Counted from the first letter of the stretch, positions 2,838 through 23,617 are shown. The stretch: DNA of 64,000 nt from an uncultured Flavobacteriales bacterium (GCA_963973975.1 CAXBCF010000017.1:559-64558), one strand, 5' to 3'. Made by a program: numbers and translations. The notes: generated by a model not told the origin, from the sequence alone.

Positions 2838-2863
2838 TTATTCATCATTCTGGAAATAAGGAA

Positions 2864-3385
2864 ATGACACGAAAAGAAAAAGAAGAAATTATAAAAGATT
2901 TGTCAGCAAAGTTAAATGAAAACTCAATTTTTTATTTAGCTGATATTTCAAATCTTGATGCCGAAAGTTCAACCAACTTAAGAAGAATGGCTCATAAAAG
3001 AGAAGTCTCCTTAAATGTGGTGAAGAATACTTTGCTAAGAAAAGCTTTAGAAGCTGCTAATGGCAGTTATGATGAGCTTTACGAAGTATTAAAAGGCAAC
3101 ACCTCTATAATGTTTGCTGAAGTAGGAAATGCTCCTGCAAAACTTATCAAGGAGTTTAGAAAGAAAAGTGAAAGACCTATTTTAAAAGGAGCTTATATTG
3201 AAGAAGCGATTTATATCGGAGATGATAAAATAGAATCTCTTTCTGAACTTAAATCTAAAGAAGAATTAATTGCAGATATTATTGCAATACTTCAATCACC
3301 AGCTAAAAATGTTGTTTCTGCCCTTCAATCAGGTAAAAATACTATTGCAGGTTTGGTAAAAACACTTTCCGAAAGGGAAGCCTAA
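2864..3385 (+). CDS. rplJ: 50S ribosomal protein L10
   Basis: Size, position between rplA and rplL, and L10-like N-terminus (KEKEEIIKDLSAKLNENSIFYLADISNLDAE). Confidence 0.93.
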   Translation: MTRKEKEEIIKDLSAKLNENSIFYLADISNLDAESSTNLRRMAHKREVSLNVVKNTLLRKALEAANGSYDELYEVLKGNTSIMFAEVGNAPAKLIKEFRKKSERPILKGAYIEEAIYIGDDKIESLSELKSKEELIADIIAILQSPAKNVVSALQSGKNTIAGLVKTLSEREA

Positions 3386-3439
3386 ATTATGTACGCACTC
3401 TCAATTCATATAAATTTAAATAATAAAAATTAAAACAAA

Positions 3440-3817
3440 ATGGCGGATTTAAAAGCGCTTGCTGAAGAGTTAGTTAACTTAACAGTGAAAGATGTAAACG
3501 AATTAGCAGGAATCCTTAAAGACGAATATGGTATTGAACCAGCTGCTGCAGCTGTTGCTGTTGCAGGTCCTGCAGGTGGAAGTGGAGACGCTGCTGCTGA
3601 AGAAAAGTCTGAATTTGATGTAATTTTAACAGCTGCAGGTGGATCAAAACTTGCTGTAGTTAAATTGGTTAAAGAATTAACTGGTCTTGGTTTGAAAGAA
3701 GCTAAAGAATTAGTTGACGGTGCACCAAAACCTGTAAAGGAAGGTGTATCTAAGGAGGAAGCTGAATCACTAAAAACACAATTAGTAGAGGCAGGAGCGG
3801 AAGTTGAAGTTAAGTAA
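3440..3817 (+). CDS. rplL: 50S ribosomal protein L7/L12
   Basis: Ala/Gly-rich hinge plus C-terminal domain [40 protein letters not shown]. Confidence 0.97.
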
Positions 3818-3839
3818 ATTTTCGCATCACTGATTTTTA

Positions 3840-3880
3840 GGTTTAGATTTCATTTGCCAGAGGCAGATGAAGTCTAAACC
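3840..3880 (+). terminator. Long hairpin between rplL and rpoB (attenuator-like)
   Basis: ~19-bp stem GGTTTAGATTTCATTTGCC / GGCAGATGAAGTCTAAACC (two G-U pairs), 3-nt loop, then a pyrimidine-rich CTTTCTTGTTT. This is the position of the known partial terminator between rplL and rpoB in E. coli. Confidence 0.5.
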
Positions 3881-3922
3881 CTTTCTTGTTTATATCTGAG
3901 TATTAACTAATCACTTCTTGAG

Positions 3923-6900
3923 ATGGCTAACGTAACGTTAACAAAAAAGCAAAACCGTATCAATTTTGCATCTATTAAAAATAAACTGGACTATCCTGAT
4001 TTTCTCGATATTCAACTTAAATCGTTCAAAGACTTTTTCCAGTTAGATACTTCTCCTGAATTTCGTGACACTGAAGGGTTATACAGTGTTTTCAGTGAAA
4101 ACTTTCCAATCACGGATGCCAGAAACCAATTTGTACTCGAATTCTTGGATTACTTTGTTGATCCTCCACGATACAGCATCGATGAGTGCATTGATCGCGG
4201 ATTAACTTATAGTGTGCCTCTTAAAGCAAAACTAAAGTTATACTGTACTGATCCTGAGCACGAAGATTTTGAAACCATCGTTCAAGATGTTTATTTGGGA
4301 ACTATTCCCTACATGACTCCTAAAGGAACTTTCCTAATCAATGGAGCTGAGCGTGTAATTGTTTCTCAATTACACCGTTCTCCTGGAGTATTCTTTGGTC
4401 AGTCAAGACATGCAAATGGTACAAAACTTTACTCTGCAAGAGTAATTCCATTTAAAGGATCATGGATTGAGTTTGCGACAGACATTAACAATGTGATGTA
4501 TGCTTACATCGATCGTAAAAAGAAATTACCCGTAACTACACTTCTTAGAGCAATCGGATTTGAGTTCGATAAAGACATTCTCGATATCTTCGAATTAGCT
4601 GATGAAGTTAAAGTTAGCAAAGCTGGATTAAAAAGAGTGCTTGGAAGAAAGTTAGCTGCTAGAGTTTTGAGAACTTGGGTGGAAGACTTTGTGGATGAAG
4701 ATACTGGTGAAGTTGTTTCTATTGAAAGAAATGAAGTAGTCATTGACCGTGAAACTGTTTTAGAAAAAGAGCATCTTGATCCAATTCTTGATTCAGGTAC
4801 TAAAACTATTATTCTTCATAAAGAAGATGTAAACTCAGCTGACTTTGCAATTATTTACAATACCTTGCAAAAAGATCCTTCAAACTCTGAGAAGGAAGCA
4901 GTAGAGCACATCTACCGTCAATTGAGAAACTCTGAGCCACCAGATGAAGAAACTGCTAGAGGTGTAATCGATAAATTATTTTTCTCTGAAACAAGGTATG
5001 ACCTTGGTGAAGTAGGAAGGTATAGAATCAATAAGAAACTTAACTTGTCGATTGACGATAATACTAAGATTCTTACAAGAGAAGACATTATCTCAATTAT
5101 CAAATACCTTATTGAGTTGATTAACTCAAAAGCAGATGTTGATGATATTGATCACTTAAGTAATAGAAGAGTTAGAACGGTTGGAGAGCAATTGTACAAC
5201 CAGTTTGGTGTTGGTTTAGCTAGAATGGCTAGAACAATTCGCGAACGAATGAATGTGAGAGATAACGAGGTGTTTACACCTGCGGATTTAATTAACGCTA
5301 AAACGCTTTCAGCTGTTATCAATTCCTTCTTTGGAACGAATCAGCTTTCTCAATTCATGGATCAAACGAATCCTTTATCAGAAGTAACTCACAAGAGAAG
5401 ACTTTCAGCACTAGGACCAGGTGGTTTATCGAGAGAAAGAGCAGGTTTTGAGGTGCGTGATGTTCACTACACTCACTACGGAAGACTTTGTCCGATTGAA
5501 ACACCTGAGGGACCAAACATTGGTTTGATTTCTTCGCTTTGTGTTTATGCAAAAGTAAATAGACTTGGATTCATCGAAACTCCTTACCGTAAAGTAGAAA
5601 ACGGTCAAGTAGGTTTTACAAATGATAAAGTAATTTACTTAAGTGCTGAAGAAGAAGACAAGCAAACGATCGCTCAAGCGAATGCAATTGTTGCTGAAGA
5701 TGGTAAGTTTGAATCTGAATTGATTAAAGCACGTTACGAAGGTGATTTCCCAATGGCTTCGCCAGATCAATTAACTTTGATGGATGTTGCGCCTAACCAA
5801 ATTGCTTCGATTGCCGCGTCGTTAATTCCATTTTTGGAACATGATGATGCTAACCGTGCTTTGATGGGATCTAACATGCAGCGCCAAGCAGTGCCACTTT
5901 TGAAACCTGACTCTCCAATTGTTGGAACAGGTCTTGAAAAACAAGTGGCTATTGACTCAAGAGTATTGATCAATGCCGAAGGAAATGGTGTTGTTGAATA
6001 TGTTGATGCCACTAAAATTATTGTAACTTATGATCGATCTGAGGAAGAAGAATTAGTTTCTTTTACCGAATCGACTAAGACTTATAAATTAATCAAATAC
6101 AAAAAAACAAACCAAGGAACTACCATTAACCTTAACCCAATTGTTTTAAAAGGCGAGAAGGTGTTGAAAGGTCAGGTGCTTTGTGAAGGTTATGCGACTG
6201 AAAATGGTGAGTTAGCTTTAGGAAGAAACTTAAAGGTAGCGTTTATGCCGTGGAAAGGGTATAACTTCGAGGATGCGATTGTAATTTCTGAAAAAGTTGT
6301 TTCTGAAGATTTATTTACTTCAGTTCACGTTGATGAGTTTTCACTTGAAGTAAGAGACACTAAGCGTGGTATTGAAGAATTGACAGCGGACATTCCAAAT
6401 GTTAGTGAAGAAGCTACAGCCAACTTAGATGAAAATGGATTGATTCGAATTGGTGCTAAAGTTCAAGAAGGAGATATTTTAATTGGAAAAATTACTCCAA
6501 AAGGAGAATCTGATCCAACTCCTGAAGAAAAATTACTTAGAGCAATTTTTGGAGACAAAGCAGGAGATGTAAAAGACGCTTCATTAAAAGTTCCACCATC
6601 AACTAAAGGTGTTGTTGTAGATAAGAAATTGTTTGAAAGAGCAGTAAAAGACAGAAAGTCTAGAGCTGATGAGAAGAACATTATCGCTAAGTTGGATGAG
6701 GAAGAACGCAAAGAATTAGCTCAACTTAAAGAAAGATTAGTTGAGAAACTTTATACAGTAGTAAACGGAAAAACCGCACAAGGGATTACAAATTACTATG
6801 GTGAAGAGATTATTCCGAAAGGAACGAAATTCACTCAAAAAATTCTTCAGAGAATTGATGACTTTGCTTTCATTGACTTTAAAAACTGGACAACTTCAGA

Positions 6901-7768
6901 TGAGTTGAACCAAGTGATTAAAACCATGTTGCACAACCATAACATGAAAGCTACTGAAGTTCAAGGAAACTACAAGCGCAAGAAATATGCGTTGACAGTA
7001 GGAGATGAGCTTCCAACAGGAATCATGAAGTTGGCTAAAGTTTATTTAGCGAAAAAGAGAAAGTTGAAAGTTGGAGATAAAATGGCGGGTCGTCACGGAA
7101 ACAAAGGTATTGTTGCTAAGATTGTACGTCCTGAAGATATGCCATTCTTAGAAGATGGAACTCCGGTAGACATCGTATTAAATCCACTAGGTGTACCATC
7201 GCGTATGAACTTAGGACAGATTTATGAGACCGTACTTGGTTGGGCAGGACAAAAATTAGGTTTAAAGTTTGCGACTCCAATTTTTGATGGAGCAAGCTTA
7301 GATCAGATTGATGAATATACCAGACAAGCAGACTTACCAATTTCAGGAAGAACTTTCTTGAGAGATGGTGGTACAGGTGAATACTTTGATCAACCTGCAA
7401 CAGTTGGGGTGATTTATATGTTGAAACTTGGACACATGGTTGACGATAAAATGCACGCAAGGTCAATTGGACCATACTCTTTAATCACACAACAACCTTT
7501 GGGTGGTAAAGCTCAATTCGGTGGACAGCGTTTTGGAGAGATGGAAGTATGGGCATTGGAAGCATTTGGAGCTGCCAACATATTGCAAGAAATCTTGACA
7601 ATTAAATCAGATGACGTAAATGGTAGAGCGAAAGCTTATGAAGCCATCGTAAAAGGTGAACCAATGCCAGTTCCGGGAATTCCAGAATCATTCAACGTAT
7701 TGTTGCATGAATTGAGAGGTTTATGCTTGAACATCACCTTGTCGGATGAACCCAAAGTAATTGTTTAG
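3923..7768 (+). CDS. rpoB: DNA-directed RNA polymerase beta subunit
   Basis: 1281 aa with conserved beta-subunit blocks ([38 protein letters not shown]). Confidence 0.99.
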
Positions 7769-7805
7769 ATCAAAGAACTTAGATTATTAATTTAATAATA
7801 GAATT

Positions 7806-10800
7806 ATGGCTTTTCGAAGAGAAAACAAAGAGACAGATAGATTTTCAAAAATTACTATTAGTCTCGCATCACCTGAGTTGATATTAGAAAAATCTCATGG
7901 TGAAGTATTAAAGCCTGAAACAATTAACTACAGAACTTATAAACCAGAAAGAGATGGTTTGTTTTGTGAGCGAATTTTCGGGCCTGTAAAAGATTACGAA
8001 TGCCACTGTGGTAAGTACAAAAGAATTAGATATAAGGGCATTGTTTGCGACAGATGTGGTGTAGAAGTTACAGAGAAGAAAGTTCGAAGAGAGCGAATGG
8101 GCCACATTTCATTGGTTGTTCCAGTTGCACATATCTGGTACTTTAAGTCTTTACCAAATAAAATTGGTTACTTATTGGGCTTACCAACGAAAAAATTGGA
8201 CGCCATTATCTATTATGAGCGCTATGCGGTTGTTCAAGGTGGAGAAGCTAAAAATGCTGAAGGAGAACCATTGCAGTACCTCGACTTTTTAACAGAAGAA
8301 GAGTACCTAGATGTATTGGATTCACTTCCAAAAGAGAATGCTTATTTAGACGATTCAGATCCGAATAAATTCATCGCCAAAATGGGTGCTGATGCTTTAT
8401 TTGAATTATTGAAACGCTTAGATTTAGATGCACTTTCTTATGATTTGCGTCACAAAGCGGGAACTGAAACTTCACAACAAAGAAAGAATGAAGCCTTGAA
8501 AAGACTTCAAGTTGTGGAAGCATTTAGACAAGCAAATGAACACATCGAAAATCGTCCGGAATGGATGATTGTGAAAGTTGTACCAGTTATTCCACCGGAA
8601 TTGAGACCATTGGTGCCATTAGATGGAGGTAGATTTGCAACTTCCGACTTAAATGACCTTTATAGAAGAGTAATTATCCGTAACAATCGTTTGAAGCGTT
8701 TAATGGAAATTAAAGCTCCTGAGGTAATTTTGAGAAACGAAAAAAGAATGCTTCAAGAAGCAGTTGATTCTTTGTTCGACAACTCTAGAAAATCATCTGC
8801 TGTTAAAACTGATTCTAACAGAGCTTTAAAATCACTTAGTGATAGTTTGAAAGGAAAGTCAGGTCGTTTCCGTCAAAACCTTTTAGGGAAAAGGGTAGAT
8901 TATTCTGCTCGTTCTGTAATTGTTGTTGGACCAGATTTAAAATTACACGAATGTGGTTTACCAAAAGACATGGCTGCAGAGCTTTACAAGCCTTTTATTA
9001 TTCGTAAGTTAATCGAAAGAGGCATTGTAAAAACAGTAAAATCTGCTAAGAAAATTGTAGATAAGAAAGAGCCAGTTGTTTGGGATATTTTAGAAAATGT
9101 ATTGAAAGGACACCCTGTTTTATTGAACAGAGCTCCAACACTTCACAGACTTGGGATTCAGGCTTTCCAACCAAAATTAATTGAAGGAAAAGCAATTCGT
9201 TTACATCCACTAGCTTGTACTGCGTTTAACGCGGATTTTGATGGGGATCAGATGGCTGTGCATTTACCTTTAGGAAATGCTGCAATATTAGAGGCTCAAC
9301 TATTAATGTTGGCTTCTCACAACATCTTAAACCCTGCAAATGGTTCGCCAATTGCGGTTCCTTCTCAGGATATGGTACTTGGATTATATTACTTAACCAA
9401 GGAAAGAGTTACTGATGATTCTCGAGTGATGAAAGGTCAGGATAAAGTATTTTACTCTCCTGAAGAGGTTGTAATTGCAAGAAACGAAGGAAGACTAGAT
9501 TTACATGCTAGAATTAAAGTAAGAATTACTAGAGCAGGGAAATCTGAAATCATGGAAACTACTTGTGGTCGTGTTATTTTCAATGAAGTGGTGCCGGAAG
9601 AAGTTCCTTACATTAACCAATTGTTGACTAAAAAATCTCTTAGAGATATTATTGGCGACATCTTGAAAAAAGCCGGTACAGCAAAAACGGCTGCCTTCAT
9701 GGATGAAATTAAGACATTGGGATATAACATGTCTTACAAAGGTGGATTATCATTTAATCTTCAGGATGTTATTGTTCCTGATGTGAAGGAAGAAATGATG
9801 AACAAAGCTGCTCAGCAAGTAAAAGAAGTTTGGGATAACTACAACATGGGTTTCATTACTAATAATGAGCGTTATAACCAGATTATTGATATTTGGACAC
9901 ACACAAATACCCGTTTGACTAATACAGTAATGTCGCGTTTACAGAATGATAATCAAGGTTTTAACTCTGTTTACATGATGTTCGATTCAGGTGCACGTGG
10001 ATCTAAAGAGCAAATTAGACAGCTTTCAGGAATGAGAGGTTTGATGGCTAAGCCACAGAAATCTGGATCGTCTGGACAAGAAATTATTGAAAACCCAATT
10101 CTTTCTAACTTTAAAGAAGGTCTTTCAATTCTTGAGTACTTTATTTCTACTCACGGTGCTCGTAAAGGTTTAGCCGATACGGCTTTGAAAACTGCAGATG
10201 CGGGTTACTTAACAAGAAGATTAGTTGACGTTTCACAAGATGTTGTTATTTCAGCTGAAGATTGTGGTACCTTAAGAGGTGTTACCATTGCAGCATTAAT
10301 GAAAAACGATGAAGAAGTTGAATCATTATACGATCGTATTTTAGGTAGAACTACAGTTCACGATGTTTATCATCCACAAACTGGTGATTTAATTATCGCG
10401 TCAGGAGAAGAAGTTACTGAAGAGGTTGCGAAAATTATTGAGGAGTCTCCAATCGATGAATTGGAAATGAGATCTGTACTTTCTTGTGAATTGAAAAGAG
10501 GAGTTTGCGCTAAATGTTACGGAAGAAGTTTGGCAACAGGAAGAATGACTCAAAAAGGTGAGGCGGTAGGAGTTATTGCTGCACAATCCATTGGTGAGCC
10601 AGGTACACAGTTGACATTAAGAACTTTCCACGTTGGGGGTACGGCTTCTAAAATTGCCGATGAATCAAGAGTTGAGTCTAAATACGATGGTATTCTTGAA
10701 ATCGATGAGTTAAGAACTGTTGAAGGAGAAGACAGAGATGGCAACAAAATTAACATTGTTGTTGGTCGTTCTGCTGAAGGTAGAATCATTGATGAGAAAA

Positions 10801-12113
10801 CAGGAATTGTATTGACAACTAATGTTATTCCTTACGGTTCTGTTTTAGTTCAAGAAAATGGATCAAAAGTTAAAAAAGGAGACTTGATTTGTTCATGGGA
10901 TCCATACAACGCATTGATAATTGCAGAAACAGCTGGTACCGTTCAATTTGAAAACTTAGTTGATGGCGTTACTTACAAAGAAGAATCTGATGAGCAAACT
11001 GGTTTTACCGAGATTGTTATCACTGAGTCTAGAGATAAGAAATTAATTCCTGAAATAAAATTAATCAACACTAAGAAAGAAGTTGTTAAAACTTACAACT
11101 TACCTGTTGGTGCTCACATTGTGGTAAAAGAAGGTGAGAAAATTGTAAGTGGTAGAACGCTTGTTAAGATTCCTAGAACTTCTGGGAAATCTGGTGATAT
11201 CACCGGTGGTTTACCTCGAGTAACTGAGTTATTTGAAGCAAGAAATCCTTCTAACCCTGCAGTAGTATCTGAAATCGATGGAATTGTTTCTTTTGGAAAA
11301 ATTAAAAGAGGTAATCGTGAGGTTGTTGTTGAATCAAGAACTGGTGAGGTTAAGAAATACTTGATTAATTTATCGAAACACATCCTCGTTCAAGAAAATG
11401 ATTTTGTTAGAGCAGGTGTGCCATTGTCTGATGGAGCAATTACTCCAGCTGATATTTTAGCAATTAAAGGACCAACTCAAGTACAAGAATACATTGTAAA
11501 TGAAGTACAAGAGGTTTACCGTTTGCAAGGTGTGAAAATTAACGACAAGCATTTTGAAGTAATTGTTAGACAGATGATGCGTAAGGTTGTTATTGAAGAT
11601 CCAGGTGATACGCGTTTTCTTGAAAAACAAATCGTTAACAAAACTGATTTTGCTGATGAAAATGATTGGATTTTCGGAAAGAAAATTGTCATCGATGCAG
11701 GAGAATCAGAAGAATTGAAACAAGGTCAGATAATTACTCCTAGAAGATTGAGAGAGGAAAACTCTAAATTGAAACGACAAGATAAAAAACTAGTTGAATC
11801 TAGAGATGCTATTTCTTCTACTTCTAATTCAATTTTACAAGGAATTACCAGAGCTTCGTTACAAACAGATAGCTTTATTTCTGCAGCTTCCTTCCAAGAA
11901 ACTACAAAAGTATTGAATGAGGCAGCAGTTAATGGCAAGCAAGATACCTTGGAAGGCTTGAAAGAAAACGTAATTGTAGGACATTTAATTCCTGCAGGAA
12001 CAGGTTTGAAAGAGTACAGCGAAATAATTGTTGGTTCTAAAGCTGAATACGAAAAACTTAAGAATAAAGAAGAGGAAGAGTATTCTGCTGAAGAAATTGA
12101 ATCAGAAATTTAA
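7806..12113 (+). CDS. rpoC: DNA-directed RNA polymerase beta' subunit
   Basis: 1435 aa with the N-terminal zinc-binding Cys cluster ([20 protein letters not shown]) and the catalytic [12 protein letters not shown] motif. Confidence 0.99.
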
Positions 12114-12119
12114 GGAACT

Positions 12120-12449
12120 ATGAGCGACGAGAATAAACCAAAAAAAGAACAAGAAGAAGGAAAACTGAACATTGAGTTGAGTGAAGAGATTGCAGAAGGT
12201 ATTTATTCCAACTTAGCCATTATCAGTCATTCAAATTCTGAATTTGTTTTTGATTTTATCAAAGTAATGCCTGGCTTACCTAAAGCAAAAGTAAAGTCGA
12301 GAGTTATGATGACTCCACAACATGCTAAAAGGTTGGTGAAAGCATTGCAAGAAAATTTGGCAAAATTTGAATCGCAATTTGGACCTATTCAACATGCTGA
12401 ACAACCTCAATTTCCAATGAATTTTGGAGGACCCAAGGGAGAAGCATAG
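12120..12449 (+). CDS. Small conserved protein (DUF3467-like) immediately after rpoC
   Basis: 109-aa ORF 6 nt after the rpoC stop. The sequence pattern (YSNLAIISHSNSEFVFDFI...PQHAKRLVKAL) matches my recollection of the DUF3467 family, which commonly follows rpoC in Bacteroidota. Confidence 0.8.
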   Translation: MSDENKPKKEQEEGKLNIELSEEIAEGIYSNLAIISHSNSEFVFDFIKVMPGLPKAKVKSRVMMTPQHAKRLVKALQENLAKFESQFGPIQHAEQPQFPMNFGGPKGEA

Positions 12450-12465
12450 TTAAAAAACAACAAAT

Positions 12466-12503
12466 AAAAAAAGCCGTTTTGAGAAATTAAGACGGCTTTT
12501 TTT
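12466..12503 (+). terminator. Intrinsic terminator ending the rpoBC transcription unit
   Basis: AAAAAAAGCCGT ... ACGGCTTTTTTT: 12-bp stem with a 7-T tail, 17 nt after the stop of the DUF3467-like gene. Confidence 0.8.
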
Positions 12504-12599
12504 GTTAATGATTTTTCAGCTTTTCAATGGAATTTGTCGCAATGTTTTTTAAATTTGAGGGACTGTCAAAATTTATCAATTAACCTTTAATAGTTATAA

Positions 12600-14774
<2,175 letters not shown>

Positions 14775-14786
14775 CCCTAACCGTAT

Positions 14787-14866
14787 CAAATTACCTCCAT
14801 AGCCCTCGGTTTAAACCGAGGGCTATGGAGATACGAGGCGAAAACCAAACCGTTTCAACGGTTTGG
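14787..14866 (+). repeat. Double-hairpin REP-like repeat, copy A
   Basis: Perfect 36-nt palindrome CTCCATAGCCCTCGGTTTAAACCGAGGGCTATGGAG (14795-14830), then ATACGAGGCGAAAA, then hairpin CCAAACCG-TTTCAA-CGGTTTGG. It is near-identical to 22716-22801. Confidence 0.9.
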
Positions 14867-14877
14867 TATTATTTTCC

Positions 14878-14910
14878 CTAGCCCACGATTTGATTGTGGG
14901 CTAGTTTTTT
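14878..14910 (+). terminator. Third hairpin with T-tract (likely katG terminator; structural homologue of 23254-23281)
   Basis: CTAGCCCAC-GATTTGATT-GTGGGCTAG followed by TTTTTT. Confidence 0.6.
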
Positions 14911-15020
14911 GCTATTATTTAATACGATGTCAACTTAACTTTATTCCACTTTTTCTTAACAGCTTCTAATTTACCACTAGAAAAAAGTAAATTAACCGTT
15001 TGAAATTAAGCAACAGAGGA

Positions 15021-18000
15021 ATGCAGATAAATAGATTGAACCCAAGAAAGGCATTAAACAAAGCCTTTTTGAAAGTAAAGCCGAACAGAACAGAAATTGA
15101 AGGGTTCAAAACGAATCTTATTCAATTGCTCGATAGAATCAATGACGCTGAATCTGAAGAATTTCATAAAAACTTGGTCAGTGATTTTCTCAAAAAAACC
15201 TATTACGAACCCAAGCACTTCATCAACACCAAAGGAAGAAACGATTTAGTAATTCACAATGGAGATAAAGCAAACAGCTCAGTTGGGGTAATTATAGAAG
15301 CAAAAAAATCGACTAACAAAAGTGAAATGGTGAAATCATTTGCTGAGAGCGATACGCCACAGCAAATAATTTCTAAGCTGAATACAAAGGCTTTTCAGGA
15401 ATTGGTGCTGTACTATTTGAGAGAACGAATAACGCACAAAAATCTTGAAGTAAAGCACCTGGTGATTACCAACATCAATGAATGGTTTGTTTTTGATGCG
15501 AGGTTATTCGATAGACTTTTTGCACAAAATAAAAGTTTGGTACAACAATTTAATGATTTTGAAGCCGGACGATTGGCAGATAATAAAACTGACTTTTTCT
15601 ACAAGCAAATTGCCGAACCATTTATTGCAGCGATTAATACCGAAATAGAATTTACTTATTTCAATCTTCAGGATTATCAGAAACCATTGAGAAATGACGA
15701 TAAAACGGATGACAATAAACTCATTGCACTTTTCAAATTACTTTCTCCTGAGCATTTACTGAAATTGCCATTTACTAATGACAGCAATAGCCTTGATAAA
15801 CGATTTTACAGCGAATTGTTGCACATAATTGGTTTAACGGAAACCAAAGAAGGAAGCAAAAAATTAATCAATCGCAACAAGGCTGGTGAAAGAAATTCGG
15901 GAAGCTTTTTAGAAGATGCAATCATTCAATTAGACAGTTTAGATAAAATTAGCCGCTTAGAAAAACCAAGTCAATTTGGCGATACGCAAGAAGAGCGATT
16001 GTTTAATGTGGCTTTAGAACTTTCCATTACTTGGATCAACAGAATTTTGTTTTTGAAATTGTTGGAGGCTCAATTAATTACCTACCACAAAGGCGATCTA
16101 TCGTATGCCTTTTTGAGTTTTGATAAAATCAAAAACTACGATGACTTGAATAGCTTGTTTTTTCAGGTTTTAGCAAAACAATACGATGAAAGAAATGAAG
16201 ATGTAAAACAAGTTTTTGAAAAAGTTCCTTACCTGAATTCATCCCTCTTTGAACCAACAGATATTGAGCATGCAACCTTGTTTATCAGTAACCTGAGAGA
16301 TGATAAAACTATTCCCATTATTTCATCAACAGTTCTAAAAAATGAGCAAGGGAAAAAGCGAACTGGAAGTTTATCTACGTTGGAATATTTGTTTGAATTT
16401 TTAAATTCCTATGATTTTAGCAGTGAAGGTTCTGAAGAAATTCAAGAAGACAATAAAACGCTGATCAATGCTTCGGTGCTCGGTTTGATTTTCGAGAAAA
16501 TTAATGGCTATAAAGATGGTTCGTTTTTTACACCTGGCTTTATTACCATGTACATGTGTCGTGAAACCATTCGAAAAGCAGTGATGCAAAAGTTTAAAGA
16601 AGCAGGTTTTCAACTTGCTGAAAGTGCTGAGCTTTCCGAAAATTTGAACGAAATCTACAACCAAATAAGCGACATTAAAAAAGCCAATGAAATTGTCAAC
16701 AGCATTAAAATTTGTGACCCTGCTGTTGGCTCGGGACACTTTTTGGTTTCGGCGCTCAATGAAATGATTGCAGTAAAAAATGATTTAAATATTTTGCAAG
16801 ACCGCGATGGAAAAAGGCTAAGAGACTATCATGTGGAAGTGGTGAACGACGAGTTGATTGTGACAGACGAAGAAGGAGAATTGTTTGACTACAAACCCAA
16901 CAACAAGGAAAGCCAACGCATACAAGAAACACTCTTTCACGAAAAGCAAACCATTATTGAAAACTGCTTGTTTGGAGTGGACATCAACCCCAATTCGGTG
17001 AAAATTTGCCGCTTGCGTTTGTGGATTGAGCTGTTGAAAAATGCCTATTACAAGAATGAAAAAGAGCTGGAGACTTTACCAAACATTGACATTAACATAA
17101 AATGCGGAAACTCTTTAGTAAGCCGTTTTGCCATTGATGCTGACATTAAAAAAGCCCTGAAAAAAAGTAAGTGGACCATTGATAGTTACCGCATTGCGGT
17201 GGCAACTTACCGAAATGCGCAAAACAAGGAGCAGAAAAGAGCAATGGAAAAACTGATTGCCGACATTAAATCGGATTTTAGAAGTGAAATTTCCATGAAT
17301 GACCCCAAGGCAAAGCGCTTGCGAAAATTGTCTGGTGATTTATTTCAGATGACTCAGCAAACACAGCTTTTTGAAATGAGCAAAAAAGAAAAAACCGCTT
17401 GGAACAAAACAGTAGCAAAACTAAGTGAAGACACTAAAAAGCTAGAAACCGAAATTGAGGTAATAAAAGCTAACAAGATTTTTGAAAATGCTTTTGAATG
17501 GCGTTTTGAATTTCCGGAAGTGCTGAATGATGACGGCGACTTTATGGGCTTTGATGTGGTGATTGGGAATCCACCTTATATAAGACAAGAAGAGTTTTCG
17601 GAACTAAAACCATATTTAAAAATCCATTTTGAAATCTATCATTCTTTAGCGGATTTACTTACTTATTTTGTAGAACTAAGTCATAATATTCTGAAGCAAA
17701 ACGGAGTATTTCAATTCATTATTTCAAGTAAATTTACGAGAGCTGGATATGGTAATGTTATGCGTAAGTTTTTATCTAAAAAAACAGAAATAACACACTT
17801 TATTGACTTTGGTGGCAAACCAGTTTTCGATGAAGCAACAGTAGATGCTGCGATTATTGGTTTCGTAAAACAACAGCCAACAAATGAAGGTACATTTGTT
17901 TTTAAAGAAGTTTTAAAAGAAGATAATGTCTCTTTAAATTTTGATAATTATATTAAAACTAATGCAAACCAATTTCCAATAAAAGCTCTAACAGAAGATG

Positions 18001-18833
18001 TTTGGAGTTTTGATAATCCCAAATGGCTTACGATTATTGATAAAATTAATAAAAATGGTATTCCTTTAAGTGAATGGAACATAACAATTAATTTTGGAAT
18101 TAAAACTGGCTACAATGCGGCATTCATAATTGATGAAGCAAAGAAAAATGAACTAATTGAAGCAGACTCGAAATCATTAGAAATTATAAAACCTTTACTA
18201 AGAGGTAGAGATATTCAAAAGTACGTTGCTGATAATGTAGTAAATTGGGTGATAGGAACATTTCCTAGTAAAAAATTAGATATTGAAGAATACGTAAGCA
18301 TTAAAAATTACCTAATAACTTTTGGAAAAACAATTCATCAAACTGGTGAAAAAGGTTCAAGAAAGAAAACATCTCATAAATGGTTCGAAACGCAAGACAA
18401 TATTGCATTTTGGCAAGATTTCGAAAAGCCAAAATTAGTATGGAAAAGAATTGGATCTTTACTTCGCTTTTGTTATGATGAGAGTGGTGCATACTGTCTA
18501 GACAGTACTTGTATAGCAACGGGTTCAAAAGTTAAATTTTTATCTGCTGTGCTTAATTCTAAAATGTGCAATAAAGAACTTTTTAGACTTTCGCCAAAAA
18601 CAGGGACAGGAGATTTGATAATCAGTGTACAAGCATTAAACCCATTAAGAGTTCCAATGCCAACGGAAAAGCAAGAAAATGAAATTTGTTCTATACTCGA
18701 TAAAATTATTGAAATCAAAAAACTAGACCCCACAGCCGACACCACGGCACTTGAAAAAGAAATCGACCAATTAGTTTATGCTTTGTATGATTTGTCGGAG
18801 GAGGAGATAAAGATTGTGGAAAATTCTAAATGA
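15021..18833 (+). CDS. Type IIG restriction-modification enzyme (fused PD-ExK endonuclease, gamma-class N6-adenine methyltransferase and TaqI-like specificity domain)
   Basis: N-terminal D82...E100-A-K102 (NDLVIHNG...VGVIIEAKK, numbering from the 15000 ORF). FFTPGFITMYM (motif X-like), ICDPAVGSGHFL (SAM motif I, 16716), NIKCGNSLV, and FDVVIGNPPY (motif IV, 17568). C-terminal FGIKTGYNAAFII and LLRGRDIQKY are typical of TaqI-like TRDs. I prefer ATG 15021 over the TTG at 15000. Confidence 0.85.
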   Translation: MQINRLNPRKALNKAFLKVKPNRTEIEGFKTNLIQLLDRINDAESEEFHKNLVSDFLKKTYYEPKHFINTKGRNDLVIHNGDKANSSVGVIIEAKKSTNKSEMVKSFAESDTPQQIISKLNTKAFQELVLYYLRERITHKNLEVKHLVITNINEWFVFDARLFDRLFAQNKSLVQQFNDFEAGRLADNKTDFFYKQIAEPFIAAINTEIEFTYFNLQDYQKPLRNDDKTDDNKLIALFKLLSPEHLLKLPFTNDSNSLDKRFYSELLHIIGLTETKEGSKKLINRNKAGERNSGSFLEDAIIQLDSLDKISRLEKPSQFGDTQEERLFNVALELSITWINRILFLKLLEAQLITYHKGDLSYAFLSFDKIKNYDDLNSLFFQVLAKQYDERNEDVKQVFEKVPYLNSSLFEPTDIEHATLFISNLRDDKTIPIISSTVLKNEQGKKRTGSLSTLEYLFEFLNSYDFSSEGSEEIQEDNKTLINASVLGLIFEKINGYKDGSFFTPGFITMYMCRETIRKAVMQKFKEAGFQLAESAELSENLNEIYNQISDIKKANEIVNSIKICDPAVGSGHFLVSALNEMIAVKNDLNILQDRDGKRLRDYHVEVVNDELIVTDEEGELFDYKPNNKESQRIQETLFHEKQTIIENCLFGVDINPNSVKICRLRLWIELLKNAYYKNEKELETLPNIDINIKCGNSLVSRFAIDADIKKALKKSKWTIDSYRIAVATYRNAQNKEQKRAMEKLIADIKSDFRSEISMNDPKAKRLRKLSGDLFQMTQQTQLFEMSKKEKTAWNKTVAKLSEDTKKLETEIEVIKANKIFENAFEWRFEFPEVLNDDGDFMGFDVVIGNPPYIRQEEFSELKPYLKIHFEIYHSLADLLTYFVELSHNILKQNGVFQFIISSKFTRAGYGNVMRKFLSKKTEITHFIDFGGKPVFDEATVDAAIIGFVKQQPTNEGTFVFKEVLKEDNVSLNFDNYIKTNANQFPIKALTEDVWSFDNPKWLTIIDKINKNGIPLSEWNITINFGIKTGYNAAFIIDEAKKNELIEADSKSLEIIKPLLRGRDIQKYVADNVVNWVIGTFPSKKLDIEEYVSIKNYLITFGKTIHQTGEKGSRKKTSHKWFETQDNIAFWQDFEKPKLVWKRIGSLLRFCYDESGAYCLDSTCIATGSKVKFLSAVLNSKMCNKELFRLSPKTGTGDLIISVQALNPLRVPMPTEKQENEICSILDKIIEIKKLDPTADTTALEKEIDQLVYALYDLSEEEIKIVENSK

Positions 18834-18908
18834 CAATAACGATTATCATGTCAGAAACACTTATCCTTTTGTTAAACTACACTTTAACGTTTTCATATAA
18901 TAAAAATT

Positions 18909-21900
18909 ATGGCTAGTCTTCAACAAATTCAGCAAGCTTTAATTAATATGAATGAGACACTTTTCGAAGAAATGTGTGGTATTTACTTATCTTACGAATT
19001 TCCCTTACATAGGTCTTTTAATCCCCAAAATCATAAAACAAAACAGAAAACAAAAAAGGGAACTCCAGATATTAGTTATAAGCTTCCCAATGAAGGTTAT
19101 TTATTTGCTCAAATAACAACTCAGGAAAATATTGGAAAAAGCCTAACAACAAAGTTGAAGAATGATATTAAAGAATGCTTCAATATTGAAAAAACTAAAA
19201 TTGAGATAGAGAAGATTAAGGAAATTGCTTTATGTTATAATGAACAAATAAAGCCTAGTGACGAAGAATTAATTAATGATTTTGCAAAAAAAGAATTTAA
19301 TATTGTTCCACATCATTTTGGGCTTAAGCGAATCGCAAAAGACATTCTCTTTAAATATCACTTCATTGGAAGAGAATACCTGAAACTAGAATTTGGTACT
19401 GGTCAGATAGTTTCTATCAAGCAGTTTATTAAAACTTATGAAAGCGGTGGTCAGAGTTTAGCTACTCCACTTAACAATCATTATCTTGAAAGGAATCAAG
19501 ATTTGCCAAACTTGATTGATTCCATTATCAATAATAATATTGTCATTATTCATGGAGTAGCAGGATCTGGTAAGTCAAAACTTGCTATAGAAGGGATTGA
19601 AAAGTTCATTGAAGAAGAAACTGAATATATTGATCTGGCACTTTTTCCTAATGGAGGTGACTTAATCCACGATCTCATTAGTGAAATAGATAATTCAAGG
19701 AAATATATTCTCTTTGTAGATGATGTTAATAGAATCGAGCAGTTTACATCTGTTTTAGCTCACTATAGAAAAGCAACCGAGAATAGCCTTAAATTAGTTT
19801 TAACAGTCAGAGATTATGCTTATTCTGAAGCAAAGTCAAAACTGCTAGGTCTTAAATATAGTGATATTCATACAGAAAGGTTTAGTGATGATGAAATTAG
19901 AGACTTAGTCGAAGCTGCACCTTTTAATATCAAGAATTCAAAATTTCGATTTAAAATATCATCAATAGCTAAAGGCAATCCACGACTAGCAATCATGACT
20001 GCAAAACTTGCCTTGGAACATCAAAAAATTGAAGCTTTAGATAACATTTTTGATCTATTCGACCAATATTTCACTTCTTTTATTTACGATAATGATATTT
20101 TAAATGAACCAATTAATTTAAAAGTATTAGGATTGCTTTCGTTCTTTAACAATATAGAACATGAAAAAGGAAGAGAAATTGAAAAACTATCTTCTAATTT
20201 CAATCTGGATGAAAACAAGATAGTTGATTCAATAGAAAAATTACACACACACGATCTTATTTTACTAAATTTTGGTTATGCAAAAATTGGTGAGCAAAAC
20301 CTTGCTACTTACTTCTATTACAAAGTCTTTATTAAAGATAAATTGTTATCAATAAACAATTTGTTGAAATATTATTTTTCAACTCATTCGAATAGATTTT
20401 CGGACAGTATAAAATCAATCATTGAGCATTTTGGAGTAGAAAGTTTAGGTACTGTAAAACCATTAATTAAAAAGTATTGGCAGGAACAAGATTTAGAGCT
20501 TCGTCAACGACTCAGTTTTCTTGATATTTTCAGACAGATCATACCAAATGATGTTTTAGTTTTTATTGAAAGCTATATTGAAAGTTTACCTAGTACCACA
20601 AACCCAATATTTAAAATAGAGGAAAATAATGACTCCGATCATTCCTTTATATACGAACCTAATGCTCTTCGTTTATTGTTTAGTTTTTATAATGACTTAA
20701 ACTATCTAGATGACGCTTTCCAACTATCTTTTTCATTAATAAAAAAGAAACCAGATTACTTTAATAAGTTAATCCAAAATTTGAAAGAAAAATTTGGAAA
20801 GAGCTTCAACGATGAGAAGTCCAAATTTGAGAGACAACATAAGCTAATTGATTATTTAATTGGTATGTCTAAAAAAGAAGAGGGGGACTTGTATAAGATT
20901 TCATTGATTGCCGTTTCACAAAGTATTTTATCTACTTTTAAATTGGATACTGAAGGTTTTAAAAGCGAAGACGTCAATGAAGATTTAGTTGATTCTATTA
21001 AGAGGATTAGGGAGAAGCTAAAGAGATTTTTATATGAAAATGTTGAAAATTTTAGTGAACCGATATTAGAAGTTTTGTTAGACAATACAATTAACAATGT
21101 TGCCATATCAAGAGAAACACACGAATTTGATCTAACTGTGACAACATCTCTAATGGCAGGTTGTCTTAATAGTAGTGACTTTAGACACTGTTTGCTAGTA
21201 CAAGAGGAGTGTTGGCTAATGAATAAATTGGGCTCATCCTCAAATGAACTGGAAAGTATAAAAATTCAGTTTTCACATTCTGCTTATGAAACCTTTATTA
21301 ATTTAAATAGAGAGCGTTTAAGGGGGAAGGTGGATTTTGAATTTGAAAACTCGGATGAGTTTGATAAATTAAAAACAACAGATCAAAAACAGTTTTTTCA
21401 TTTTAGAAGCACTAAGGAAGTTGACAATTTTATTGAACATTTGAGACTAATATTAAATTGGGATTTTCTTTCAAAACATAGTTTATATCAATTAAGACAG
21501 TCTATTTATATCATCTTAGAGGAAAACAATAGACAGAACCGAAAAATTGGATTTCATTTACTTTGTAAGTTAATTACTTTTTTTAACCTGAGAAAAGAAA
21601 CAATTGTTGATGCTTCTTTTTTTAAAATAATTTCTGACGAAAATGAAGTTTTAGAAAAGCTTTGGGAATATATAGTTTCTAATAATTTACAACCAATATG
21701 GAAGTTATTTGTGCTAGATTCAATTCCTGCATATAGAATTGAAAAAGTACATTATGATCGATTGATCAATACTATTTCTATCCAAAAAAATGATTGGTAC
21801 TCACTCAAGAATTTTGAAAAGTACTCTAATGTTGATTCTCAGGTAATAGAGAAAATCGTGAAACAAATAACTGATTTAAACGAGAAAGGTGGTGACTATA

Positions 21901-22640
21901 AAATATGGTTAGATAGAGAATTTCATCAAAATTTGGGAGAAAATAATCAGCTTGAGCTTGCTAAAGAGTCCTATCTTCAACAATACTTTATGAATAAACA
22001 TTTTGATCATGGAGGTAAAGCCTTATTATCAATTTTAGAAAAGGATAAAAAATTTCTAAACGTGTTATTAAGGAGTATTGTTGAAAGACAAATAAAGCTG
22101 AAAGCTATTGAGCACAGAGAGTTAAGTATTGTTTGGGAATTAGAAGGGGCAGAAGAAGTTATTGATAACGCTATTTTATTGATGGTTGAAATGAATACTA
22201 ATTATACAATAGGTGAAGATTTTATCAATACATTTTTTTATGAATCACATCTTCGTTCAGTGCAAGTAAACACATATTTATTAAATTTAATAAAGAAATA
22301 TTACTATAGAGTGGATGTAGTTAATATTGCTTTTAATGTAATAAACTACTCTAAAAAAGACTTATTTGATAAAGCATTCGTAACTTATTTAAGTATTAAT
22401 CAGTCAAAAGATGACTTTGAACAAATAGATTGGTTTGAAAATCAAATAATATATCCGGGTGGTGCTAAGGTTAGTAAGATAAAGATTAGCAAATGGCAGT
22501 ATTTACTCAATTTAGTTGAAGGTCATGAAAAACGGTTAGATTTAATTGAAATTAAAAGATTTATCAATAGCCAAATTGGACACCAAGAAAATTTTGCAGT
22601 CATTGAAGAGAGTTGGAATTTTTTAAAAGAAACATGGTAG
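18909..22640 (+). CDS. STAND-type P-loop NTPase, 1243 aa, with unassigned N-terminal (~165 aa) and C-terminal (~870 aa) regions
   Basis: Walker A IIHGVAGSGKSK (19554), Walker B YILFVDDV (19704-19727), LVLTVRD (sensor-1-like Arg) and a GxP-type motif AKGNPRLAIMTAKLA (19974) follow the order seen in NB-ARC/NACHT-like STAND ATPases. It sits 75 nt downstream of the Type IIG gene on the same strand. Confidence 0.75.
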   Translation: MASLQQIQQALINMNETLFEEMCGIYLSYEFPLHRSFNPQNHKTKQKTKKGTPDISYKLPNEGYLFAQITTQENIGKSLTTKLKNDIKECFNIEKTKIEIEKIKEIALCYNEQIKPSDEELINDFAKKEFNIVPHHFGLKRIAKDILFKYHFIGREYLKLEFGTGQIVSIKQFIKTYESGGQSLATPLNNHYLERNQDLPNLIDSIINNNIVIIHGVAGSGKSKLAIEGIEKFIEEETEYIDLALFPNGGDLIHDLISEIDNSRKYILFVDDVNRIEQFTSVLAHYRKATENSLKLVLTVRDYAYSEAKSKLLGLKYSDIHTERFSDDEIRDLVEAAPFNIKNSKFRFKISSIAKGNPRLAIMTAKLALEHQKIEALDNIFDLFDQYFTSFIYDNDILNEPINLKVLGLLSFFNNIEHEKGREIEKLSSNFNLDENKIVDSIEKLHTHDLILLNFGYAKIGEQNLATYFYYKVFIKDKLLSINNLLKYYFSTHSNRFSDSIKSIIEHFGVESLGTVKPLIKKYWQEQDLELRQRLSFLDIFRQIIPNDVLVFIESYIESLPSTTNPIFKIEENNDSDHSFIYEPNALRLLFSFYNDLNYLDDAFQLSFSLIKKKPDYFNKLIQNLKEKFGKSFNDEKSKFERQHKLIDYLIGMSKKEEGDLYKISLIAVSQSILSTFKLDTEGFKSEDVNEDLVDSIKRIREKLKRFLYENVENFSEPILEVLLDNTINNVAISRETHEFDLTVTTSLMAGCLNSSDFRHCLLVQEECWLMNKLGSSSNELESIKIQFSHSAYETFINLNRERLRGKVDFEFENSDEFDKLKTTDQKQFFHFRSTKEVDNFIEHLRLILNWDFLSKHSLYQLRQSIYIILEENNRQNRKIGFHLLCKLITFFNLRKETIVDASFFKIISDENEVLEKLWEYIVSNNLQPIWKLFVLDSIPAYRIEKVHYDRLINTISIQKNDWYSLKNFEKYSNVDSQVIEKIVKQITDLNEKGGDYKIWLDREFHQNLGENNQLELAKESYLQQYFMNKHFDHGGKALLSILEKDKKFLNVLLRSIVERQIKLKAIEHRELSIVWELEGAEEVIDNAILLMVEMNTNYTIGEDFINTFFYESHLRSVQVNTYLLNLIKKYYYRVDVVNIAFNVINYSKKDLFDKAFVTYLSINQSKDDFEQIDWFENQIIYPGGAKVSKIKISKWQYLLNLVEGHEKRLDLIEIKRFINSQIGHQENFAVIEESWNFLKETW

Positions 22641-22715
22641 TCAAGTTAAATGAATGTATAACATATACATCAGTCTTAAATATTAAGCTAAATGGATAAT
22701 CCATTCTAAACATAA

Positions 22716-22801
22716 CAAATTATCTCCATATCTCCATAGCCCGGGGTTTAAACCCCGGGCTATGGAGATACGAGGCGAAAACCAAACCGTTTCAACGGTT
22801 T
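22716..22801 (+). repeat. Double-hairpin REP-like repeat, copy B
   Basis: CTCCATAGCCCGGGGTTTAAACCCCGGGCTATGGAG (22732-22767), then the identical ATACGAGGCGAAAACCAAACCGTTTCAACGGTTT. An 8-nt tandem duplication TCTCCATA TCTCCATA lies at the left edge (22723-22738). Confidence 0.9.
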
Positions 22802-22816
22802 ATAAAACGATCAATT

Positions 22817-23251
22817 ATGCCGCATTCATACATTAAAATATGGATACATGCCATTTGGGCAACAAAAGAGAGAAAACCCTTGATTAACTCAACCATTGAG
22901 AAAAAGGTGTATCAGTTTATTTCTGATCAATTGCGTGAGCAGGGTTGTCCTGTTAGAATTATCAACGGAATGCCCGACCACATTCATTGTTTGTTTTTAT
23001 TAAGCCGACAAAAATCCATAGCAGAAGTTATAAAGCAGATAAAAGGCAGCAGTTCACATTTTATCAATCATAATAATCTAATCCCTGAAAAATTTTCATG
23101 GCAAACAGGATATGCCGCATATTCAGTTTCTGAGTCTATTGTTGAGAGGGTATTTAATTATATCAAAAAGCAAAAGGAGCATCACCAAAAACAAACATTT
23201 CTTCAAGAATATGAGGAATACATAAAATTATATGGGTTGGATAAAAATTAA
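22817..23251 (+). CDS. IS200-like Y1 transposase / REP-associated tyrosine transposase (RAYT)
   Basis: 144 aa with HUH motif PDHIHCLF (H55-I-H57, nt 22979) and C-terminal catalytic-Tyr helix VFNYIKKQKEHH (Y115, nt 23159). The gene is immediately flanked by palindromic repeats. Confidence 0.85.
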   Translation: MPHSYIKIWIHAIWATKERKPLINSTIEKKVYQFISDQLREQGCPVRIINGMPDHIHCLFLLSRQKSIAEVIKQIKGSSSHFINHNNLIPEKFSWQTGYAAYSVSESIVERVFNYIKKQKEHHQKQTFLQEYEEYIKLYGLDKN

Positions 23252-23253
23252 CT

Positions 23254-23281
23254 TTAGCTCATGATTTAAATAATGAGCTAG
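23254..23281. terminator. Hairpin between convergent tnpA-like gene and yciH-like gene (right-end hairpin / bidirectional terminator)
   Basis: 8-9-bp stem TAGCTCAT / ATGAGCTA with a 10-nt loop, 3 nt after the tnpA stop and 10 nt from the yciH-like stop. Confidence 0.5.
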
Positions 23282-23290
23282 GTATGTATC

Positions 23291-23617
23291 TTACCCCCCA
23301 ACACGCTTCACTTTATAGCCTTTTTTGGAGAGCACTTCCATCACCTTATCGCGTTTTTCTCCTTGAATAATAATTTCTCCATCTTTTACGCTGCCGCCAA
23401 CGCCACAAGCATTTTTTAGGGTTTTGCCCAAGTCATTCAAGTCGGCATCGTTGCCAATAAAACCACGCACAACGGTGGCTGTTTTTCCACCCCGATTTTT
23501 CTTGTCTTGATATACTTTTAGTTCTTGTTGTTGAGGTGGAAGGGTGTCAATTTCCTCTTCTTCTTCAGTTTTGAAATTTGGATTTGTTGAAAAAACGATG
23601 CGATCTTTTGATTTCAT
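23291..23617 (-). CDS. SUI1/YciH-family translation initiation factor
   Basis: 108 aa with RGGKTATVVRGF and LKNACGVGGSVKDGEIIIQGEKRDKV, typical of the SUI1 family. Confidence 0.9.
   Translation of the reverse strand: MKSKDRIVFSTNPNFKTEEEEEIDTLPPQQQELKVYQDKKNRGGKTATVVRGFIGNDADLNDLGKTLKNACGVGGSVKDGEIIIQGEKRDKVMEVLSKKGYKVKRVGG

Follow-up and report, generated by a model that had tools for sequence, protein, structure and literature searches.

Type IIG restriction-modification and Avs-like STAND NTPase genes probably form a small defense island of two independent modules between insertions of an IS200-like element in an uncultured Flavobacteriales bacterium

We analyzed a 64,000-nucleotide stretch of DNA from an uncultured Flavobacteriales bacterium (GCA_963973975.1, CAXBCF010000017.1:559-64558; here called the window), in which positions 14787 to 23281 hold a Type IIG restriction-modification (RM) gene and a gene for a 1243-amino-acid (aa) STAND NTPase. 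The gene order around them is rpoB, rpoC, DUF3467, katG, repeat, Type IIG gene, spacer, NTPase gene, repeat, Y1 transposase gene, and a convergent yciH/SUI1 gene. Although a first-pass annotation of the window had proposed that the two genes form a composite, functionally paired module, our analysis indicates that the segment is probably a small defense island in which two self-sufficient, separately acquired single-gene immune modules lie between two insertions of one IS200-like element. Their adjacency appears to reflect the tendency of defense genes to gather in the same places rather than any need of one for the other. The open reading frame (ORF) positions given in the first-pass annotation were confirmed by our ORF and gene calls, as were the shared orientation of the RM and NTPase genes and the 75 nucleotides (nt) between them; repeat and domain searches likewise confirmed that the same structured repeat lies on both sides, with a Y1 transposase at one end. 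The features of the island are as follows.

14792 to 14906, plus strand: miniature, transposase-less IS200-like copy (73-nt repeat; DNA fold of -42.5 kcal/mol, z = -11.5).
15021 to 18833, plus strand: Type IIG RM enzyme, 1270 aa (Pfam; PADLOC model PDLC03612; motifs).
18834 to 18908, plus strand: spacer of 75 nt between the RM and NTPase genes (no terminator-like hairpin found).
18909 to 22640, plus strand: STAND NTPase gene, 1243 aa (Pfam nSTAND3; AlphaFold2 [AF2] models).
22729 to 23281, plus strand: full IS200/IS605-family element, ~550 bp (Pfam Y1_Tnp; NCBIfam IS200; hairpins).
22817 to 23251, plus strand: tnpA, Y1 transposase, 144 aa (Pfam Y1_Tnp, 91 bits; NCBIfam transpos_IS200, 66.2 bits against a cutoff of 55).

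The neighborhoods of relatives argue for independence of the two genes. We surveyed 80 loci carrying an NTPase homolog, taking one genome per species and 10-kb flanks where the contig allowed. A Type IIG gene lay within 10 kb of the NTPase gene at 3 of the 80 loci (L024, L051, and L068), and these three genes represent different Type IIG lineages and lie at different positions; the remaining 77 loci had none. Relatives of the window's RM enzyme were found at L024 and L068, and L051 carries an MmeI-type enzyme. The closest RM relatives, three proteins at 85%, 80%, and 79% identity, adjoin GmrSD/Bro-N genes, genes for UvrD and RNase H, or the operon of an ATP synthase, and the 1243-aa NTPase was next to none of these three. 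DNA homology also stopped at single-gene borders: the block shared with RM relatives spans 15020 to 18836, with ends between 18784 and 18836, and the block shared with NTPase relatives spans 18902 to 22653, with starts between 18902 and 18909, so that each covers one gene only. The closest relative is 85% identical for the RM enzyme versus 70% identical for the NTPase. Base composition differs as well, since the NTPase gene has a G+C content (GC) of 0.289 (z = -2.5), albeit with an ordinary value at third codon positions (GC3 z = -1.1), whereas the RM gene, at 0.341 (z = -0.6), is unremarkable. Given that the two genes differ in their relatives, contexts, homology limits, and GC, they are most likely two independent single-gene modules.

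By sequence, the RM gene product of 1270 aa is an ordinary Type IIG enzyme in which nuclease and methyltransferase share a single polypeptide. Its ORF opens with a TTG at 15000, and the ATG at 15021 is favored by the gene callers and by the sequence, which gives the length of 1270 aa. An N-terminal PD-ExK nuclease domain (DUF7149) is followed by a linker (DUF7814), a gamma-class N6-adenine methyltransferase (Eco57I/MmeI_Mtase), and a TaqI_C-like target-recognition domain, with Pfam scores of 339 bits for DUF7149, 130 bits for Eco57I, and 32.3 bits for TaqI_C (cutoff, 26.5). The PADLOC model REase_MTase_IIG (PDLC03612) matched the protein over its full length (959 bits, E = 1.3e-288; residues 8 to 1276 on model positions 1 to 1246 of 1247). 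The D..ExK nuclease motif (D75..E93-A-K95, counted from the ATG at 15021) was present in 119 of 120 close homologs, and all 120 carried methyltransferase motif I, DPAxGSGHF (DPAVGSGHF at residue 565 in the window protein), and motif IV, NPPY (residue 849). P0121, a variant with 100% identity to the window enzyme, carries all three motifs. Relatives of the enzyme number more than 8000, and the top 120 are 63 to 85% identical. Family members are also encoded on plasmids from many phyla; these plasmid homologs are conserved up to residue ~950 and vary in the C-terminal specificity region. The enzyme thus resembles Eco57I- and MmeI-like Type IIG enzymes in all structural respects, but it has no close solved structure; its best matches in the Protein Data Bank (PDB) were the methyltransferase BseCI, an adenine methyltransferase, and, over parts of the protein only, PglX/BrxX. 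No papers on DUF7149 or DUF7814 were found in a literature search.

Given its family, the enzyme would methylate adenine in an asymmetric site on host DNA, and its N-terminal PD-ExK nuclease would cut incoming DNA that lacks this modification. A BREX-like reading of the locus, in which a PglX methyltransferase accompanies a BrxC-sized ATPase, was considered and rejected: the BREX_1_MTaseX model scored 95 bits against a cutoff of 500, the NTPase has no BrxC or DUF499 match, and there is no PglZ gene in the region.

At one locus that carries the 80%-identical RM relative (L106), UvrD and RNase H lie downstream of the RM gene, and a divergent pair lies upstream that encodes a 325-aa AAA/nSTAND3-like ATPase (5347-6324) and an 834-aa Peptidase_S8 protein (2836-5340). 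This locus looks like another defense island with a different STAND-type gene.

In the NTPase, three parts can be distinguished, as follows.

18909 to 19388, plus strand: NTPase residues 1 to 160, PD-(D/E)xK-like putative effector domain (AF2 topology; PF15518 matches in relatives).
19389 to 20468, plus strand: NTPase residues ~161 to 520, STAND module, nSTAND3 (Pfam nSTAND3 and NB-ARC; AF2 predicted local distance difference test [pLDDT] score of 81).
20469 to 22640, plus strand: NTPase residues 521 to 1243, all-alpha solenoid, presumed ligand sensor (AF2 pLDDT of 86).

The Pfam model nSTAND3 (PF20720) matched the window protein marginally, at 29.6 bits against a cutoff of 27.2, and a precomputed PF20720 match exists for every listed homolog. 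Walker A (GVAGSGKSK, with K222) and Walker B (LFVDD, with D271/D272) motifs are followed by helical and winged-helix parts; residues G216, G219, G221, K222, D271, and D272 were invariant in alignments of 20 and 48 sequences. The AF2 model of residues 1 to 520 (pLDDT, 81) shows an N-terminal domain of alpha-beta-beta-beta-alpha-beta topology and then the STAND core, and the model of residues 501 to 1243 (pLDDT, 86) contains helices only. When the N-terminal half was searched with Foldseek, the best matches were Avs4 (PDB 8dgf, E = 7e-11) and EfAvs5 (PDB 9jap, E = 3e-9). The solenoid returned weak karyopherin/HEAT-like matches only and no clue to the ligand. Pfam PF15518 (L_protein_N) was matched by 24 of 49 family members (best E = 1.9e-5), although the window protein itself does not match it. 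PF15518 describes the N-terminus of the bunyavirus L protein, which we take to be a PD-(D/E)xK cap-snatching endonuclease. The family-invariant residues of the N-terminal domain include D54 (in a "PD"), E68, and K82, whose spacing is presumably that of an influenza PA/L-protein type of site.

Avs4 (AVAST type 4; PDB 8dgf) joins an Mrr-like nuclease to a STAND NTPase and a helical sensor whose ligand is the phage portal protein. Like the window NTPase, for which it is the best Foldseek match, Avs4 is a single-gene system in which a restriction-endonuclease-fold N-terminal domain, a STAND NTPase, and a large alpha-helical C-terminal sensor follow one another in the same order. The window protein differs in having no sequence-level relationship to Avs4 and in belonging to Pfam nSTAND3; its N-terminal domain resembles the bunyavirus L-protein type (PF15518) rather than Mrr, and its solenoid has no specific structural match. 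Avs5 (AVAST type 5), the second-best fold match, shares nSTAND3 (PF20720) and a helical-repeat C-terminus with the window protein, but the window effector is a nuclease-fold domain and not a Sir2 NADase, and the PADLOC Avs5 model does not match. A Sir2 effector, an nSTAND3 NTPase, and repeats have been described as the parts of Avs5 (bioRxiv 10.1101/2025.07.08.663546). Judging from the models, the NTPase is Avs-like in build without being a member of Avs1 to Avs5 by sequence, i.e., it is a new member of the Avs-like kind with a predicted role in immunity.

The three-part architecture seen in the models would, by analogy with Avs4 and Avs5, operate in three steps. The C-terminal alpha-solenoid would bind a phage-derived ligand, the nSTAND3 module would then oligomerize and switch on the N-terminal restriction-endonuclease-fold domain, and this domain, once activated, would kill or arrest the infected cell. 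The trigger, the oligomerization, and the nuclease activity are all carried over from these two systems.

The first-pass annotation had called both genes defense-type, which agrees with the PADLOC Type IIG match and with the Avs-like fold. Running PADLOC on both proteins placed the RM enzyme in the Type IIG model but gave the NTPase no match to a named system; no Avs1 to Avs5 model matched it at E ≤ 0.01. The first-pass annotation, which did not recognize the NTPase as part of a named system, is therefore borne out for the PADLOC models, but the novelty claim fails by the condition set in that annotation, since the RM enzyme falls cleanly into the named Type IIG family and public databases already label the NTPase "nSTAND3 domain-containing NTPase." A MADS reading was dismissed because the sole PADLOC match of the NTPase, to mad8 (E = 1.2e-3), covers the P-loop region only. 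PDB sequence searches with a family profile and an N-terminal-domain profile returned generic P-loop matches or nothing, and no Avs chain. No papers naming the accession numbers of the NTPase homologs were found in a literature search.

The NTPase family is large and uniform. Among 1.84 billion representatives, a search with residues 1 to 1200 gave 696 clusters (~700 at 50% identity) with E ≤ 1e-30; of the full-length hits that were listed, nearly all were ~1240 aa long and aligned end to end. The closest named relative comes from a Vicingaceae metagenome-assembled genome (MAG). Members occur in Bacteroidota, Bacillota, Spirochaetota, Planctomycetota, one Methanobrevibacter MAG, and Leptospira and Bacillus plasmids; no homolog was found in phage genomes. 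This family looks horizontally spread. Full-length homologs include those of the Methanobrevibacter MAG (L061, 7388-11164), 13 Leptospira plasmids, and one Bacillus cereus megaplasmid (H1 to H14). What remains of value is a well-defined, widespread STAND family with an Avs-like build and an unusual nuclease-type N-terminal domain. Since it is common in Bacteroidota, where few defense systems have been tested, it is a reasonable candidate for trigger screening such as that by which Avs7 to Avs24 were defined. A 2026 catalog sorts prokaryotic STANDs into 589 clades, names Avs7 to Avs24, and gives Proteobacteria, mostly Enterobacteriaceae, as the source of the representatives tested (PMC13581612).

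That NTPase homologs often lie beside defense genes, as the first-pass annotation expected, was borne out by the neighbor surveys. The neighbors vary by genome and are often of defense type, namely, TIR-like genes, OLD/AriA-like ATPases, UvrD/GajB-like (Gabija-like) helicases, Type I, Type III, and Type IIG RM genes, DRT, and PDC-S45. Defense models matched ~20 of the 124 nearest neighbors, a raw count that allows for several models on the same proteins. The only recurrent neighbor is a ~240-aa TIR/nucleoside-deoxyribosyltransferase-like gene, which matches the PADLOC model "Effector TIR" (PDLC00733) and, weakly, Pfam Nuc_deoxyrib_tr, and whose end overlaps the NTPase start at 10 of the 80 loci.

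These 10 loci are L025, L029, L031, L034, L048, L059, L068, L076, L077, and L085, with the TIR-like gene at ~9250-10005 in most. In 8 of the 10, a ~140-aa ORF of no known family lies ~700 nt upstream, so that the TIR-like gene, this ORF, and the NTPase gene may make up a three-gene variant.

We consider it unlikely that the NTPase has no immune function and is a STAND-type regulator or housekeeping ATPase that came to lie beside an RM gene by chance. Consistent with such a role, no PADLOC defense model matches it, its length and C-terminal domain are unusually conserved, unlike those of fast-diversifying sensors, and many of its neighbors are ordinary, e.g., TonB receptors, the Pol III alpha subunit, and histidine kinases. 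However, the patchy distribution across phyla, the occurrence on plasmids, and a genomic context that differs in almost every genome are at odds with a housekeeping gene, and the nuclease-fold N-terminal domain, the best fold matches to Avs4 and Avs5, and the recurrent defense neighbors, including the overlapping TIR-like genes, all point to immunity.

The putative nuclease site is altered in the window protein. The window NTPase and its two closest relatives, P0003 at L006 (69% identical) and P0002 at L103 (70% identical), carry E20, G24, and Q68, whereas the rest of the family carries Q20, D24, and E68. Outside this clade, D24 and E68 were invariant in 47 aligned sequences, and a motif scan of the 117 database hits found E68 wherever the motif matched and a single exception at D24. 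Since two invariant acidic residues are replaced, the effector may not work as assumed. In the AF2 model, positions 20 and 24 are separated by a single turn of the first helix, and it may be that the carboxylate has moved (Q20E) or that the site is inactive. The replacement of these two residues offers a simple mutational test of effector action.

Several observations weigh against two self-sufficient modules, the first being that these two acidic residues, which are otherwise invariant, have been lost in the window clade. The RM and NTPase genes are, moreover, co-oriented and 75 nt apart, and since no terminator-like site was found in the spacer, cotranscription is possible, which is weak evidence for a functional link. 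In an Aureispira MAG (L024), the start codon of the NTPase gene is directly adjoined by an Eco57I-like Type IIG gene. Regarding separate acquisition, exact look-ups of the yciH, katG, and Y1 proteins and a metagenome scan of katG (80 loci, at most 81% identity) yielded no empty site, and acquisition by insertion is therefore something that we infer. As to immunity, no PADLOC Avs1 to Avs5 model matches the NTPase and our literature search on the family found no paper, so its defense role is a prediction.

The first three of these points would also be expected of a true two-gene composite in which the STAND NTPase senses infection and acts through, or regulates, the Type IIG enzyme, being dependent on this partner because its own site is degenerate: the genes are close and co-oriented with no terminator between them, D24G and E68Q are found only in the window clade, and a second abutting pair exists. 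We nevertheless regard a composite as quite unlikely. The altered site is the only feature that could revive dependence on a neighboring effector, yet the two relatives at L006 and L103 share the substitutions and neither has a Type IIG neighbor. Q20E falls on the helix that holds D24, a single turn away, and could also have relocated the catalytic carboxylate. At 77 of the 80 NTPase loci, the surrounding 10 kb contain no Type IIG gene, the loci of the closest relatives of either gene do not carry the other one, and homology ends at gene borders, so that the functional pairing proposed in the first-pass annotation is not supported. As a composite system, the locus does not matter, since the pairing looks coincidental.

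A more specific version, which we hold to be very unlikely, is that the ~1240-aa family is an uncharacterized Avs family combining a PA/L-protein-like endonuclease domain, nSTAND3, and an alpha-solenoid, and that the clade protein is a nuclease-dead sensor acting via a neighbor such as the Type IIG enzyme. If true, a nuclease-dead sensor with a Type IIG effector would parallel, in bacteria, the sensor/helper pairs of NLRs.

The loci mentioned above differ in their surroundings. At L024, the Type IIG enzyme (1040 aa, with an MmeI_hel spacer; 6878-9997) ends 1 nt before the start of the NTPase homolog (10001-13666), and, the window aside, RM and NTPase genes abut tightly at no other of the 80 loci. 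At L006, the NTPase gene, which encodes the closest named relative, is adjoined by genes for a TPR protein and a trypsin-like protease (13859-14731, minus strand) that matches the PADLOC candidate PDC-S45 at 293 bits. The homolog at L103 lies inside an integrase-bearing element beside a divergent gene whose product has a weak methyltransferase domain. This 937-aa neighbor was considered as a Type IIG enzyme and rejected, since it has only a weak orphan-methyltransferase domain and is divergently oriented. A common downstream partner in the window clade was also rejected, the 298-aa protein at L103 and the 290-aa protein at L006 being unrelated.

The preferred reading of the segment as an island of two modules also concerns its borders, where the flanking repeats are, to judge from their sequences and folds, one full copy and one miniature copy of one IS200-like element. 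A 73-nt repeat occurs in direct orientation at 14792-14864 and 22729-22801, with 93% identity and compensatory stem changes, i.e., in exactly two copies in the 64-kb window compared with zero expected from shuffles. Relative to shuffled sequence, both repeats are strongly structured (z = -11.5 on the left and -8.4 on the right). The miniature copy has hairpins A (14795-14830), B (14844-14867), and C (14878-14904), the last followed by a T-run, and in the full element, left-end hairpins A' (22732-22767) and B' (22784-22801) are complemented by a right-end hairpin C' (23255-23280). Hairpin C aligns with the post-tnpA hairpin C', again with compensatory stem differences. Both copies therefore have subterminal hairpins at their two ends rather than terminal inverted repeats. 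Since each copy has its own left and right ends, the two are separate insertions rather than the arms of a single transposon.

The Y1 transposase contains HIH and YIKKQ motifs in its translation. As in IS200/IS605 elements and their miniature derivatives, a Y1 (HUH) transposase is encoded between hairpins up- and downstream of tnpA, and a transposase-less copy joins the same ends; the difference is that the full element is only ~550 bp here and that one full copy and one miniature copy were seen. The Y1 gene may alternatively be in a REP/RAYT-like domesticated state, although its score with the RAYT model was 34 bits, under the cutoff of 80. Terminator-like matches were found at hairpins B and C of the miniature copy, and hairpin C looks like it doubles as the katG terminator.

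The bracketing of the two genes raises the alternative of an 8.5-kb cargo-carrying transposon, in which the Y1 transposase would move the whole cassette by using one outer end of each copy, namely, the left end of the miniature at 14792 and that on the right of the full element at 23281. Two copies in the same orientation do bracket exactly the two defense genes, the 64-kb window holds no further copy of the repeat, and the arrangement is the same in all contigs of the population. We find this highly improbable, however, given that each copy has left- and right-end hairpins of its own and is thus a complete, separate element. The repeat was not found in any fetched locus of relatives, no relative of either gene has the repeat or a Y1 gene nearby, and an exact-protein look-up found the exact transposase at this one locus only. 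Because the RM and NTPase genes differ in their nearest relatives and homology limits, none of the sources sampled delivered them as a single unit. Elements of the IS200/IS605 family transpose in the form of short single strands and are not known to carry 8-kb cargo.

The claim that this is the only segment in the window that looks horizontally acquired was upheld in part. The mobile and variable behavior stands, in that the genes are patchy across phyla and occur on plasmids, but the compositional signal is weak, since only the NTPase gene has low GC. Better evidence for a horizontal origin comes from the patchy distribution across phyla and the differing context in nearly every genome with the NTPase. 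A LytTR-type two-component pair, comprising a histidine kinase with Y_Y_Y and a response regulator (45747-49447, minus strand), also has a low GC of 0.305 to 0.307 (z of approximately -1.8), so the RM-NTPase segment is not the sole compositionally deviant stretch in the window.

The island is flanked by the following genes.

12603 to 14774, plus strand: katG, bifunctional catalase-peroxidase, left flank, outside the island (Pfam peroxidase, two domains, 244 bits).
23291 to 23617, minus strand: yciH/SUI1-like gene, right flank (Pfam SUI1, 68 bits; NCBIfam SUI1_rel, 98 bits, under the cutoff of 111.65).

The first-pass annotation had placed conserved core genes on both sides, which fails for katG: at none of the 80 closest metagenomic katG loci (60 to 81% identity) was rpoC, DUF3467, or yciH within 10 kb. 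katG, whose GC of 0.406 is the second-highest among the window genes, may itself be a variable insertion after the rpoBC-DUF3467 block. Since its 80 nearest metagenomic relatives show no conserved linkage with rpoC or yciH, the whole interval after DUF3467 may be variable.

The source population is marine Bacteroidota, and the locus was also found on Tara and ENA contigs, which were at least 99.87% identical where DNA was compared. Exact look-ups of the yciH, katG, and Y1 proteins returned contigs of this same population only, and the island is present in all of those spanning the region. A sigma-70 promoter scan gave 36 sites compared with 38.5 expected and is uninformative, the consensus being the wrong promoter type for Bacteroidota. 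One population variant (L099/L090; ERZ3422114 NODE_4115, 3.6x coverage), equivalent to window positions 15021-22816, shows two deletions, one of 16 nt by which the RM gene is split into ORFs of 203 and 1048 aa and one of 2 nt by which the NTPase is lengthened to 1262 aa; either the island is decaying in some cells or the deletions are an artifact of assembly.

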